Made by a program: the position numbers. 60,523 bases of DNA from Escherichia phage TL-2011c. How positions within the stretch are numbered: the first letter of the stretch is position 1; every line of letters starts with the position of its first letter. The DNA lies in the sequence record JQ011318. The stretch is one strand, 5' to 3'. Shown here in pieces: positions 1 to 6,000 of the stretch.

Positions 1-3000
1 TTTGAAAAATATAATTTTATTTCATCCTCCTGGTCACTTTGGGGCACGTCTGGGGCACGGGCATTAAGGACATTATTCAACATGGCAACTTGAGTCACGC
101 TGCACTCAGGCATCCATGCACCATAAACATTGTAGACCATGCTGGCGCTGGAGTGCCCCATCTGTGATGCAATAAATGTCGGGTTTGCTCCGGCAGATAA
201 AGCCCAGCACGCATAGGTATGGCGTGACTGATACGCTTTACGGGATCGGATACCCGCTCTTTTTATTGCTGAATCCCATGTCGCTCCGATGGAGCTTACC
301 GCGTAGTTAATACCAGCCTTGTGATTCTTGCGAACGATTTGCGGACAGAAAACAAAAGTGCACTCGTGCAAAATTGTTCTTCCGTACTCGCGTAATTGAA
401 CAGTGATCTGATGCTGCCTGCTAAGACGAGTAAGCATCGCCTGGTTTTTAAGTGCTTCAATTGCTGGTGCCAGAAGATGTATAACCCGGTTAGTGCCTGC
501 GTCGGTCTTTGGTAGCGTAAAATCACCTATTTTTGTAAAATTTCGTCGCACTGTTATCGTGCCAGCTTTCAGGTCGATATCCTCCCATGCAAGTGCGGCA
601 ATTTCACCGTGTCGCATCCCTGTAAAAACAGCCACTGTCCAGAGGTTTTTGGTCTGTTGATGATGGCAGGCATCAATGAGACGGCTAAACTCATCTCTGG
701 TCAGTGGATCCGGCACTGGTTTTGATTTCCTCAGCGGTGTTATTGAATTAAACGGGTTTTTCTCCAGATACCCGTTTTCGGCGGCAAAGCTGAACATTCC
801 GGCTGTTGTTGTCATGTAATAGTTCACTGTGGGTACGGTTCTTCCTTTTCGGGACGTGCTGGTTTTCCTGCTTCCCTTTTCCCCGGTCAGTAAATCTTTC
901 CTGATAAACAGCAGATCTTCTTTTGTAATCGATGACGCCAGCCTGCCAGGACCAAGCCTCGGTAGCATATTTTTCATCACTGATTGATAACGATTTAAGG
1001 CGTTACTACTGATTTCCATTGCTTTCAGAGTAAGCCATTTCTGTGCCAGTTCACCGACGGTGATATCTTTTTTTACCAGGCCAAATAGCTTCAGGTTAGG
1101 TGAGTCAGGGAATCGCTCGGCATAATCAAACGTTCCCGTTCTGATTGCAAAGCAGACAGAAGCCCTTAACTCACCAGCGATCTTTCTGTTTTTCGGAGTA
1201 TCGGGCACGCGAAGATTTTCGCGCACTCGTTTACCCCTGTACTTAAACGTTATTCGGAGTTTTCCTCCGTGATTTTCAACGCCGGCTGGATAGGCTGAAT
1301 TCGCCATTGTTCCTCCTGCGTCCAAGAGCACGCTCAGGTTATACTCTTATGGACAAGAATTAAACATCCTGAGATGGTAAGGGTTGGTTTTTGATCCAAG
1401 TGTTGATGGTAGGAAGGTGATAGAGACATTCGCTGTTTTTCTTTGGCGTTCCGTCGGGGGCGATTTGTTTATATTCTCTGCCGTTCATCCACGCACTGTC
1501 CCTGGCGCGTAATATTGTTCCTTTTCTCAGGCCTGTTACAGCCATTAAAAGCTCCAGTGTTACCCATTCATTCGCATTTATCTGTACAACAGGTGTGATG
1601 ACTGGCTGAATGCCATGGTTATGTTGGTTTACTAACTCGCGCATAAGTTGCCTCTGCATGTGTAAGAAAAAACCGCCCGAAGGCGGTTGTCAGTTGATTG
1701 ATGTACGGCGCATTTTTCGAAGGCTGGCAATATGCTTTTCCTTCTCAATTTCCGCTTTAATCATATGCAGTTCGTTGTGCTCGATTCGCTCAAATTCTTC
1801 ATTAAATGCACTAATTGAAGTGGCTCTGGTTCTGCCGTCGAGCCTTCGGTAGATCACCTGAGTCAGAGTTACCTTGCATATTTCTACCGGATAGTTGTTG
1901 GCATCAACGAAAGACTGCCCGCGCTGGATCAGGACGAACACTGGTTGTATTCCTTGAGTGCCATATCATAAACACGGCATGCCGAGAGGTGTGTTGTAGT
2001 CAACGTCGTTCGTATCCTGAAAAGTCCATGTGTTGTGACGGTAACTTCCGGGGCTTTGAGTTTCACTGCATCAACGATATGCTGATGTTTGCGCCTTTCG
2101 AATATAGAGCTGGATATAACCACACTTGCTGTTAAACCGTAACTTTCAAATGTGATTTTCATGTCATTATCCTCGCAGTTAGCCGGGCAACAAAAATAAA
2201 TAATGTTGTTCCTGCGAATAACAGGATACCGCCCGTCATTAGAGAAAGGAAAAACAATATTAATGTACGCGGGTTGTTTCTCAAAATATTCTCTCTGTGA
2301 TTCGCTCACTCTGACAATTCGTTGATCAAGTCACGGTATTTATTCAGTTCTTGCAACGCCTTACATGCACCCTCCCATCGTTTCTGTTTCCGCCCGGCGC
2401 GGCGCGCTTCTTTCCGTGATTTACGTAGCAGGTCACCTATAATGTTGTGCTGCACTGGCTGCACTGGGGCGATATTTGGTTTTTTGTCCACTTCCCTTGC
2501 AACTGCCTGCCAGATGCCATTTTTTACAGTTACTACCCCCTGGTTTTTTAACTTCCATAGAGTGTCAATAACGTCATTCAAATCAATATTGAGACCTTTA
2601 GAAATACTTTCGGCTGATGCTTTTCCTAATTTGTTCAATTCTGTGAGCACTGCGTTCATTTTTTTCTCCTGATATTTTAATGTCGGTGGGGCTGTTATAC
2701 GGTTAGTGAGGTGTCAGCTTCTTCTACCAGCTTTTCCAGTTCATCCAGCTTTCGGGAAAGAATTTCACCAAACAGATGAAGTTCTGCATCTGCTGTAATC
2801 GGGATTGGAACAAATCGTATTCCACTTCTGGCAAGTTGATTTGCGATTTCCAGACACTGCCTTAATTCAACTGGTGATGCCTTTGTCAACGTCGTTTTTT
2901 CGCTCATTGGTTTTCTCCAGAAATTTAACAATACCCGGAACCATCTCAATGGATGGTGTGCCGCATTGGTTACCCCATACATCAAATCCATGCGAGGTGT

Positions 3001-6000
3001 GGCGGGCGAACAGTTCTATCCGGGGAACATCGCCAAGAAGTTGCACAAGCTTTTCTCGAGCCATATCCGGCTTGCGGGAGTGATCAAGGCGCGGTGCAGT
3101 GAATGACTGGATTATTCCGGCGTTAATGCGTTCGGGCAGATTTCCTTTCACTGCAAAAAGGCAGTCTTCGCTGTTAGCGCGAGTGGTGCTACCCATACCC
3201 ATGACCAGCTTGTCGGTCTGTCTTTTCCCGCATTTGTTCCAGGTTAATCCTTTCATCGTCACCAGACGAAAGCCCCACGCTTCTACAACCTTCAATGCTT
3301 CAAGTGGTTGTGTAGGCACCCACCACATAGCCAACAGGCAATTCTCGGCTGCCAGTTCCCATACCGGGAGGCGGCAGATATCCAGAAGACTCATGACCGG
3401 ATATTTAAAACTTGCACCGCGTTGACCATCGGTTGCTTTGTCGCGGAATGTCCAGGGGGGATCTGCGTAAATGAGGGTGTATTTTTTCGTCATAGCGCGT
3501 TTTCAAACTCATCAATGTAAAGTCCTGCTTTAATCAGTCGGCGACGGCGTTCGGCCTTTTGCACGTATTCCTCGCGACAGTTTTTTGCTGCGTGTTCACG
3601 GCTTCTGCGACTGAATGGAGGAACGGCATTGCGTGAGCGAGGTGTGTCACGACGAGGATTTGATTCGAGGGAGAAAAAGCGATCAACGATTCCGGTGTCT
3701 GTGGTGAATGGTTCTGAAGCCTTTATTTTCACAACCTTACTGCCCTTTGTCAGGCCGCGAGCTACCTTGTTGAACTCGCAAAGTGAAACACCAAATTTCT
3801 CTGCTATTTCACTGCCAGTAACAGGACGACCACGAGACTGAATCATCCAAGTGACGCGTTCTTTTAACCCACGGAAGGCACCGGGCCTTCCAGAACGCCT
3901 GTAGAAAGCGATCTGTTTCAAATTTTTGTCTCCAGATATGAAAACCCCGACGGGATGTCGGGGATGGTAGGGGAAGTTACAGGCTTAACGAGAAGCCTTT
4001 TCGGGAATTTCGATCTGACAATCTTGAAATATCCTGTAGCGTGCGGCGCATTTCTTCCGTCAGATGCTTGAAGGCGTTAAATTCAGCGACAGCGGCGTCA
4101 ACGTTATAGCCTTTGCTGTGTAGCTCATTGAGGATGCGCATAGTTGGGCTTGGCATGTCGAAGAGCACAGAAACGTCCAGGTTAAGAGTTTTTCGATCAA
4201 CATAGCTCATCATGGAGTAGGGGTGGTGCTCTGAAAACCACGATAGAGGGTAGTTGATGTTCATTGGTGCAGGTAAAAGGCTCTGGCGAAGTTTCTTTTC
4301 GCACTCGATGAAGTATCGGCGGATCTGGCGGCCTTTTTCGTTACGCTCAACCATCGCCAGTTCTTTGGCTGTGTCGAGGGTGAGGTGGTAATCCTTGCGG
4401 CGGCGGCCTGGAGTTTTCGCCAAATTTGGCGAAAATAGAATGTAGTCTAAATTTTCTACGAATCCATACTCGTTTAGCCTGGCCCGTATCCAGTTAGAAA
4501 AATCTTTACCTACCTCTAAAAATCCATGCAAATCACGCGCGTTCACCAGAAGCGTAGGTTCATTTGAGATTGTACCTTCAAACACAGGGATGAGTTGAGT
4601 GGTCATGATGACCTCCTTTGGCTTTTTTCGAGAAATGCCACCACAAAATGTGGTGCCGGGAGGCTCGAAACGGCCCAAAAGATACCGCGGACTTATTCCC
4701 CTTGCGGGTGTTGTATTCGTCGCCCTCCCGACATTGATCGGGGATGTGACCGCACACTGTGCTATCACTGAATAACAGGCATAAAAAATCCAACACTGAC
4801 GGGGTTGGTTTAATCCGCTTTTGGGAGGTTTTCGAGGCCTCGGCGCGGAGTATAGTCAGTATTGGACGCAGTCGTCAACCATCGCAAGCTCTTTGGCTGT
4901 GTCGAGGGTGAGGTGGTATTCCTTGCGGTTGTGACCGCCTCTACCTTTTGCTTGCCAATTTTGGCAAGCAATAACAAAATCTTGATTTTCAACGAATCCA
5001 TATTCAGCAATGCGCTCTTTAACCCAGTGCGCGAACATTCTGCCCACACCAAGAAAAGAGTGTAGCTCACGAGCGTTAACTAGAAGAATTGTTTCGTTGT
5101 CGATAGTGCCGTTGAATACGGGGATGAGTTGACTGGTCATGATGACCTCCTTTGAAGTTTTAGTTAGCAATCACCAGTTAGTGGCTGGTGATCGGGTGTC
5201 AACTAGAGCCTTCAAAGATGCTCCGGGCATATTCCCCTTGCGGGTATTGTATTACGCCTCTCCACCCGACCTTTGTACGGATGTGACTATGCCAAATTGC
5301 AGGCATAAAAAAGCCGCAAAGCTATCGGGTGCGGATGACCGCTTTGAAGTTCTAGTGCGGTCAGTATGCGATAGCTCTGGCGGATTTGTCAAATCATGTA
5401 GGCCTTATCTTGCTGTAAGCCGCGCCATTCGGGCTTTTCCCCAGATTTGGGGGAAACTATCTGCGAAGTATTCACCTTTGACGGCAAGTTGCAGGTTAGC
5501 CACGGTTAACCTCCTGCGGCGGTTCTGGTAGCGGCATCCAGTGTGTTACCTGCTCAACACCATTGCCCGGCTTAATCGTTGCTTCTCCTCGCCGAAAGGT
5601 GCTTCCGGTATAGCGTGCGGAGCATATTAGCGGCTCAACCAGATCACTATCGAAATTCACCGAAATAAGTACGTTCTGATTCTTTTTCGGCATTCGCTCA
5701 CTACAGCTTATCCAACTATCCGGAGTTCCCGGAGAGTTGCCATTTACATCGAAGTTTGGCTCTGCGTCCTGAACTAGGAGGATGTAACCATTCTTGGCCG
5801 TATCAAGTTCTAACGCCTCGGTGACGGTGCCGAAATAGCGATTACCTAAATCAGCATCACAAGTGCTTACATCAATGGAAACTTCCATGCCTTCGATTAA
5901 TTCTGGTAAGTTGTAAGTTTGGTTTACAGGCTCTGCTTCCAGCGATGCCAGAGCAATTCGTGCCAGTTCTTCCGCTTCTTCTGCTGGCAGTACAACGTTG

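Follow-up and report, generated by a model that had tools for sequence, protein, structure and literature searches.

The methyltransferase gene and its partner

The sequence of Escherichia phage TL-2011c (record JQ011318, 60,523 nucleotides (nt), the whole of which is called the window in the following) contains close to its start a leftward gene for an MT-A70 family N6-adenine methyltransferase, which directly follows the gene for a putative helix-turn-helix (HTH) protein termed PNB-2. As judged from its sequence, the window represents a lambdoid phage with a short tail that is Stx2a-converting and belongs to the O104:H4 type (P13374-like), and nucleotide comparison gave 99.5-99.9% identity with phages P13374, P14437, P8983 and phiON-2011. 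The methyltransferase gene belongs to the phage type behind the 2011 O104:H4 outbreak, and published work ties it to the spontaneous switching of Shiga toxin (Stx) prophages and thus to toxin output.

Table 1. Features of the TL-2011c window referred to in the text (aa, amino acids; ORF, open reading frame; -, leftward strand).
Feature	Position	Strand	Basis and remarks
MT-A70 family N6-adenine methyltransferase, 208 aa, ATG start, stop included	2867..3493	-	ORF and Pfam
PNB-2, 143 aa, TTG start	3490..3921	-	143/143 identical to phiPA8 gp6
Shine-Dalgarno-like GGAGA	3929..3933	-	7 nt upstream of PNB-2 TTG, read from sequence
Intrinsic terminator, CCCCGAC-ATCCC-GTCGGGG-TTTT	3941..3963	-	Between Ant-like gene and PNB-2
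AntA/AntB-domain ORF	3977..4768	-	Pfam; Ant-like gene at gp7/PNB-1 position
AntA/AntB-domain ORF	4856..5170	-	Pfam
DUF1382 small protein, 70 aa from internal ATG	2695..2907	-	Pfam PF07131, 3.9e-28
207-aa ORF	6065..6688	-	No Pfam, NCBIfam-type or PDB sequence match; PHROGs 9263 and 631, unknown function
PstI/BsuBI-type restriction endonuclease, EcoGIII-like	15104..16057	-	BsuBI_PstI_RE 4.6e-61, N-terminal HTH domain 1.2e-54; P13374 annotation
Cognate N6-adenine methylase, M.EcoGIII-like, NPPY	16054..17433	-	Pfam Eco57I-type methylase, motif scan

The methyltransferase, whose N-terminus reads MTKKYTLIYADPPWTF, is recognized by the Pfam profile MT-A70 (PF05063) with an E value of 1.3e-22 and 81 bits, compared to a gathering cut-off of 23.9 bits, and the match from residue 5 to 176 covers the profile in full length (positions 1-172 of 172). 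Motif IV ([DNSH]PP[YFW]) is present as DPPW at residues 11-14, near the N-terminus of the domain, and aligns with the DPPW of Tetrahymena MTA1. Among 24 homologues, P12 and W14 do not vary, conservation is 90% or higher at D11 and P13, and the most variable part of the family is the C-terminal tail, starting from about residue 188. Variants from strains other than E. coli that produces Shiga toxin (STEC) are reported to lack the final 27 residues of the methyltransferase together with PNB-2 (PMC10810198). The best sequence matches in the PDB are Tetrahymena MTA1, a DNA N6-methyladenine (6mA) enzyme (1.9e-12), followed by METTL4 and METTL3 (METTL3, 1e-4), all of which are multi-subunit enzymes. 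An AlphaFold2 model (predicted template modelling score 0.70; mean predicted local distance difference test (pLDDT) 66.5, with a core of about 80 and low confidence for the loop 80-109 and the tail) was matched by Foldseek about equally well to METTL3, MTA1 and METTL4, with a probability of 1.00 and E values of about 1e-8. The full-length profile match, motif IV and the catalytic fold all place the protein in the MT-A70 family. The cluster with its exact sequence bears the name 'adenine methylase [E. coli]', and its PHROG (359) that of 'DNA methyltransferase'; NCBIfam gave no match for either the methyltransferase or PNB-2. A scan for [DNS]PP[YFWH] in all ORFs of at least 80 codons in six frames returned two carriers only, the DPPW ORF and an NPPY ORF at ~16.0-17.5 kb, and by this motif the window holds no further methyltransferase.

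The stop codon of PNB-2 overlaps the ATG of the methyltransferase by 4 nt. This overlap and the Shine-Dalgarno-like sequence before PNB-2 indicate that the two genes probably constitute a translationally coupled two-gene module. The RefSeq annotation of P13374 gives PNB-2 as a protein of 118 amino acids; the 143-residue form appears to be the real one, because the published PNB-2 forward primer (PMC10810198) matches positions 3904-3921 exactly and fixes the TTG start at 3921, the GGAGA sequence lies at the proper place and the N-terminal 25 residues are conserved across homologues. The AlphaFold2 model of PNB-2 has a winged-HTH core (~19-85, pLDDT about 80-89), which a disordered linker connects to a long basic C-terminal helix rich in arginine (105-131). 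Foldseek produced generic winged-helix matches only (TFE-alpha, MarR/ZitR, ArsR), all with E values of at least 7e-3; the protein belongs to PHROG 1680 (unknown function), and its Pfam HTH_11 match stays below the threshold. The terminator upstream of PNB-2 was also detected by a terminator scan (7 pairs, 6 of them G-C) and matches exactly the gp7-gp6 terminator printed in PMC10810198. Because of its position directly upstream, the pair should represent a separate unit unless transcription from further upstream is antiterminated. The stretch from the terminator to the start of PNB-2 showed no sigma-70-like promoter; the promoter described in the literature is reported to be induced near stationary phase.

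These data agree with a preliminary description of the locus in several respects. It had reported a DPPW adenine methyltransferase, which is confirmed by the ORF, the full-length PF05063 match and the position of motif IV, and had placed it among the early genes of the left operon, where it indeed lies on the leftward strand with exo and recT on one side and xis and int on the other. The HTH protein and antirepressor genes named as its neighbors correspond to PNB-2 and the two AntA/AntB-domain ORFs of Table 1. Its statement that there is no cognate endonuclease also stands: as judged by Pfam and PHROG, the gene is flanked by PNB-2, DUF1382, DUF1627 and Ant genes, with no conserved adjacent endonuclease that would make it part of a type II restriction-modification (R-M) system, and the contexts of 47 homologue loci described below are heterogeneous, without any nuclease conserved with the gene.

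Identity with the known Stx-phage enzyme

A direct comparison makes it essentially certain that the ORF encodes the already described Stx-phage MT-A70 methyltransferase, known as M.EcoPA8orf6770P/M.ECPA8_3172P in phage phiPA8 and as M.EcoGV in the O104:H4 phage. The feature as such is therefore known, and the modest new lead of this analysis comes from the context of PNB-2. The protein is identical with gp5 of phiPA8 (KP682374, M.EcoPA8orf6770P) in 207 of 208 residues, the only difference being a conservative substitution (E50 here, D50 in phiPA8), and with the copy of the O104:H4 phage P13374 in 206 of 208. phiPA8 likewise has the 4-nt overlap, the terminator ahead of the pair and the DUF1382 and DUF1627 genes behind it, and a near-identical catalytic subunit with an adjacent, co-oriented upstream PNB-2 gene preceded by a terminator identifies both pairs as members of one orthologous group. 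The two phages differ in their left ends and integrases, the phage of the window being of the O104:H4/wrbA type with an excisionase and a different integrase, and in the gp7/PNB-1 gene, which has a different N-terminal domain (AntA-type here). The ORF at this PNB-1 position, upstream of the terminator, appears as a mosaic relative to phiPA8 gp7 (3338-4015): only the C-terminal ~100 amino acids are shared (93% identity), and the N-terminal half of the product consists of the AntA/AntB domain.

The function of this enzyme has been studied experimentally. Natural disruption of gp5 by the insertion sequence (IS) IS629 leads to less spontaneous induction and less amoeba killing and virulence (Gong, Chakraborty & Koudelka, NAR 2023, PMC10810198), and the defect is complemented by wild-type gp5, but not by a mutant in which DPPW is changed to APPA (PMC10810198). 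The phiPA8 enzyme alone consumed S-adenosylmethionine (SAM) at near-background levels with DNA, including dam- DNA, and with RNA (PMC10810198). PNB-2 co-purifies and cross-links with the methyltransferase in a 1:1 ratio, and SAM use by the complex with total RNA exceeded that with DNA more than 13.5-fold, with a preference for 16S over 23S rRNA, above all inside 30S subunits; RNA of methyltransferase-positive lysogens was a poor substrate (PMC10810198). A follow-up preprint reports deletion phenotypes and protection of the ribosomes from Stx, as well as nanopore signal changes at 16S k-mers centred at 832, 1098, 1100, 1132, and 1190.

A different activity has been recorded for M.EcoGV. As cited in PMC10810198 and PMC6602927, this highly similar enzyme, from the Stx phage of O104, methylates GATC in vivo if overproduced without PNB-2, and a methylome study of O111 strains lists M.EcoGV as a GATC-specific Dam homologue on Stx2 prophages (PMC6602927). 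The two papers, from which the equation with the ORF of the window is taken, describe M.EcoGV of the O104:H4 strain C227-11 (Fang et al. 2012, as cited there) as a 'Dam homolog' of the same phage type that is weakly expressed in the lysogen; it has been characterized by overexpression without PNB-2 only.

Proposed mechanism and substrate

The most likely mechanism, which we regard as probable, is that of a two-subunit enzyme composed of the MT-A70 protein as catalytic and PNB-2 as nucleic-acid-binding subunit, with 16S rRNA as substrate. The DPPW pocket would move the methyl group from SAM to N6 of an adenine, as expected from the family and in line with the loss of function of the APPA mutant. 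PNB-2 would bind the enzyme in a 1:1 ratio and supply both nucleic-acid binding and the choice of substrate; the complex and its shift to 16S rRNA and 30S subunits are published for proteins that are 99.5% and 100% identical to those of the window. In a lysogen, the pair would be weakly expressed from its own unit downstream of the terminator, and its activity would raise spontaneous induction and hence the output of phage and Stx, as has been published. The enzyme should methylate GATC in DNA when it lacks PNB-2 or is overproduced, as published for M.EcoGV. The comparative data given below suggest that this Dam-like activity on DNA was the ancestral role of the module and is possibly still a parallel one.

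In its logic, such a two-subunit mechanism resembles those of Tetrahymena MTA1c (MTA1-MTA9-p1-p2) and human METTL3-METTL14, but the partner is unrelated. These complexes are the closest solved structures (20-22% identity in structural alignments), and in both of them an MT-A70 catalytic subunit needs partner proteins for nucleic-acid binding. Their partners are MT-A70 paralogues and homeobox-like proteins instead of a winged-HTH protein with a basic helix, and their substrates are ApT DNA and DRACH mRNA, respectively.

Several observations weigh against a dedicated rRNA methyltransferase. The rRNA claim is based on a SAM-consumption assay and on nanopore signal shifts rather than on chemical detection of m6A. 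In E. coli 16S rRNA (rrsH), the five reported k-mer centres correspond to G, C, C, C, and G; an adenine is found inside four of the five 5-mers at these centres, and the one centred at 1098 (CCCGC) contains none. The construct used for co-expression of the 'holoenzyme' (F2) runs to position 2056 of PA8 and thus also encodes the 70-amino acid DUF1382 protein. Moreover, neither the fold (Foldseek) nor the sequence relatives (PDB search) of the methyltransferase separate an RNA from a DNA substrate. No GAUC lies closer than 117 nt to any reported centre; the idea that the reported 16S positions share a GAUC context, which would have linked the RNA and DNA specificities, was ruled out, as none of the five lies in GAUC and the centres are not adenines.

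The distribution of the two genes points in the same direction. Among 5,426 complete E. coli genomes, 258 match the DNA of the pair, in every case on the chromosome, and the match spans both genes in 132 of these, the rest containing either the methyltransferase without PNB-2 or a partial methyltransferase. In a 25-row sample over the 258 genomes, an intact-looking methyltransferase without PNB-2 accounts for seven rows (about a quarter). TW14359 may serve as an example, in which a 226-nt gap and a 55-amino acid ORF take the place of PNB-2. The wider family was represented by 47 species-representative genomes with methyltransferase homologues of 56-79% identity: PNB-2 is absent within 4 kb from 46 of the 47 loci, and the single match is not adjacent to the methyltransferase gene. 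On these grounds, a conserved partnership of PNB-2 with the methyltransferases of the wider family was rejected. The ORFs flanking the 47 loci form 29 clusters on the upstream and 33 on the downstream side, including NinB-like and RusA-like proteins by our own reading of the sequences, which would fit ordinary prophage early regions.

PNB-2 homologues in methylase cassettes

A view from the side of PNB-2 reveals a different kind of association. The PNB-2 family comprises 65 clusters of proteins of about 142 amino acids, named "regulator" and confined to Enterobacteriaceae, and was sampled at 65 divergent loci with 52-60% identity to PNB-2. At 57 of these loci, an adenine methyltransferase is encoded downstream on the same strand, which belongs to the MT-A70 family in 44 cases and to the unrelated PF05869 Dam family in the other 13; the two families never occur together. 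A C5 DNA methylase is additionally present at 19 of the loci. The PF05869 enzymes, which we take to be of the T1-Dam/M.EcoVT2Dam type, occupy the identical slot directly after the PNB-2 homologue in other enterobacterial prophages, for example at locus L057 of Klebsiella oxytoca, and show the same 4-nt overlap, yet they have 175 amino acids and belong to another Pfam family, and no similarity to the MT-A70 enzyme could be detected in their sequences. The exchange may even occur behind almost the same protein, as the PNB-2 homologues directly preceding a Dam gene at locus L105 and an MT-A70 gene at locus L095 are 99.3% identical. Natural PNB-2-methyltransferase fusions were not encountered among 120 homologue clusters; one candidate (P0170) looks like a deletion chimera of the adjacent genes.

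At six loci in E. coli prophages (L052-L055, L096, L103), a gene for a DndB-like protein (PF14072) and two ORFs of unknown function (55 and 151 amino acids) separate the PNB-2 homologue from the methyltransferase as an insertion, in the order PNB-2-like, 55 amino acids, DndB-like, 151 amino acids, MT-A70 or Dam, followed in some of them (L052-L054) by a C5 methylase.

The new aspect of these comparisons is that PNB-2 homologues head prophage cassettes containing either of two unrelated methyltransferase families, which suggests that PNB-2 is indifferent to the catalytic fold that follows. An interchange of MT-A70 and Dam enzymes inside DNA-methylase cassettes would be expected if both did the same job, namely GATC methylation of DNA. 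The comparative data do not fit a dedicated rRNA adaptor, and a role on DNA (GATC) is kept open. PNB-2 might tentatively be regarded as a general, family-agnostic accessory of prophage adenine methyltransferases, serving MT-A70 or PF05869 Dam enzymes alike. Such an accessory may retarget GATC-specific DNA methylases to another substrate, e.g. 16S rRNA, or it may control a DNA-methylation cassette, the published rRNA activity being a side reaction. Either version, if true, would revise the current description of a single system, and the pairing with two unrelated methyltransferase families provides a testable reason to re-examine the question of rRNA versus DNA as target.

Alternative interpretations

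The main rival of the 16S rRNA mechanism is that the protein serves the phage in the first place as an orphan DNA methyltransferase of the Dam-like kind, specific for GATC, which methylates phage DNA and perhaps host DNA during lytic growth or at a low level in the lysogen, with PNB-2 as general accessory or regulator and the rRNA preference as a secondary property. We consider this possible, though clearly less likely. Its effects might consist of protection from GATC-dependent restriction, faster remethylation of replicating phage DNA, or a shift in the balance between SOS response and repressor. The in vivo methylation of GATC by M.EcoGV, as reported in the papers cited above, speaks for it, and so does the MT-A70 protein p32 of Serratia phage BZS1, which is 38% identical over 96% of the methyltransferase of the window and whose specificity for GATC has been shown in a dam- host by MboI/DpnI digestion, with the enzyme alone (a homologue from HK639 is 44.5% identical). 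The GATC-specific enzymes BZS1 p32 and M.EfaBMDam of Tn1549 share the Pfam family, the similar size and the status of orphan enzymes in prophage early regions with the methyltransferase of the window, but no PNB-2-like partner has been described for them. Further support comes from the interchange of MT-A70 and PF05869 Dam behind near-identical PNB-2 genes, often beside a C5 DNA methylase, from the occurrence of most family members without PNB-2 beside NinB-like or RusA-like neighbors in ordinary prophage early regions, and from the DNA 6mA enzyme MTA1 being the best sequence relative in the PDB. GATC is also depleted in the window, with 163 sites observed versus 259.5 expected from a Markov model (ratio 0.63), but this is no outlier among the 4-mer palindromes, as similar ratios are obtained for CTAG (0.61), TATA (0.64) and GGCC (0.66). 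Against a Dam-like role stand the near-background SAM use of the purified enzyme on dam- DNA, either alone or with PNB-2 (PMC10810198), and the unclear benefit of the activity in a host whose own Dam already covers GATC. The need of the induction phenotype for the catalytic motif does not tell which substrate matters. Taken together, the cassette comparison and the findings on GATC for M.EcoGV and BZS1 p32 make this rival stronger.

The preliminary description had read the gene as an anti-restriction orphan. Its assignment as an orphan of the MT-A70/DPPW type holds, but the function attached to it is not supported as stated, given the PNB-2 partner, the published effects on 16S rRNA and induction, GATC as the only reported motif and the terminator directly upstream of the pair. 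A strict self-protection methylase, conferring a new protective motif on the phage DNA independently of the PstI-like system, is in our view improbable and the least supported of the readings. It would agree with the lack of a cognate nuclease and the location in the early region, and it corresponds to the common interpretation of orphan methylases of phages, as stated in PMC10810198. However, the sole DNA motif reported for this protein is GATC, no novelty in E. coli, and the methylomes of O104:H4-type and O111 Stx lysogens showed GATC and CTGCAG only (PMC6602927). The terminator insulates the pair from upstream leftward transcription, and the published phenotype concerns the frequency of induction and not the evasion of restriction (PMC10810198). 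A comparison of the methylomes of induced and uninduced lysogens would be blind in a dam+ host, because GATC is already methylated by the host Dam. For annotation and methylome studies, the gene should accordingly not be treated as a routine anti-restriction orphan, since dam+ hosts mask its GATC motif and rRNA has been reported as its physiological substrate.

Finally, a largely silent passenger without significant activity in its native context appears highly improbable. M.EcoGV is indeed described as weakly expressed in PMC10810198, and five rows of the 25-row sample (about a fifth) contain a partial gene, consistent with truncation or IS disruption. Nevertheless, more than 100 Stx phage records contain the methyltransferase and PNB-2 with a conservation of at least 99%, and measurable phenotypes, which the wild-type gene complements, result from the natural IS629 disruption as well as from engineered deletions.

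The separate R-M pair and further genes of the early region

The complete R-M pair which the preliminary description had noted elsewhere in the phage is likewise present (Table 1), with a caveat concerning its methylase. This PstI-like system corresponds to EcoGIII with the specificity CTGCAG (PMC6602927). The methylase gene, annotated as 16054-17523 on the leftward strand, contains in the window a 1-nt insertion, an extra A near 17434 (CAGTTCAATGACG versus CAGTTCATGACG in P13374), which shifts the frame of the annotated 489-amino acid protein after codon 29 and leaves an ORF of 459 amino acids from the next ATG, lacking the first 30 codons. None of the 72 matching phage records has the extra base, which represents either a private mutation or a sequencing error; the endonuclease ORF is intact, and in the case of a private mutation, it becomes a question how the lysogen tolerates the endonuclease. 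CTGCAG occurs 10 times in the window, compared to 23.5 times expected from the Markov model. Two independent adenine methylation activities on DNA, as had been proposed for this prophage, are plausible.

The order of genes in the leftward direction starts with cI, the methylase and endonuclease of the PstI/BsuBI-like system and Rha/Ash-like regulator and antirepressor genes, continues with kil, gam-like, recT, exo, ssb, ea22-like genes and DUF551, and ends with the two AntA/AntB-domain ORFs, the terminator, PNB-2, the methyltransferase, DUF1382, DUF1627, xis, and int. With its start, the DUF1382 gene, which the RefSeq annotation also lists in a 213-nt form beside the methyltransferase, overlaps the 3' end of the methyltransferase gene by 41 nt (2867-2907), equivalent to its last 13 codons; from its position, it is regarded as a downstream neighbor, and no place in the functional unit is claimed for it.

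The 207-amino acid ORF of Table 1 was examined as a candidate for a hidden endonuclease and rejected, as it has no Pfam or PDB support and is absent from phiPA8, P13374, TW14359 and O104:H4; since phages with the same methyltransferase lack it, it is not linked to this gene. By eye, its sequence displays a PD...E-A-K arrangement (PDAMGF...LIEAKCS) similar to PD-(D/E)xK nucleases, and it was found in 4 of 141 fetched loci, all of them STEC-like.

The window also contains two full-length matches to the Rfam family sRNA-Xcc1 (RF02221) above the gathering score, at 4647-4732 and 5182-5271 on the leftward strand (74.5 and 65.4 bits). Each of them is located directly upstream of an AntA/AntB-domain antirepressor-like ORF, which makes them resemble conserved 5' leaders of the genes in question.

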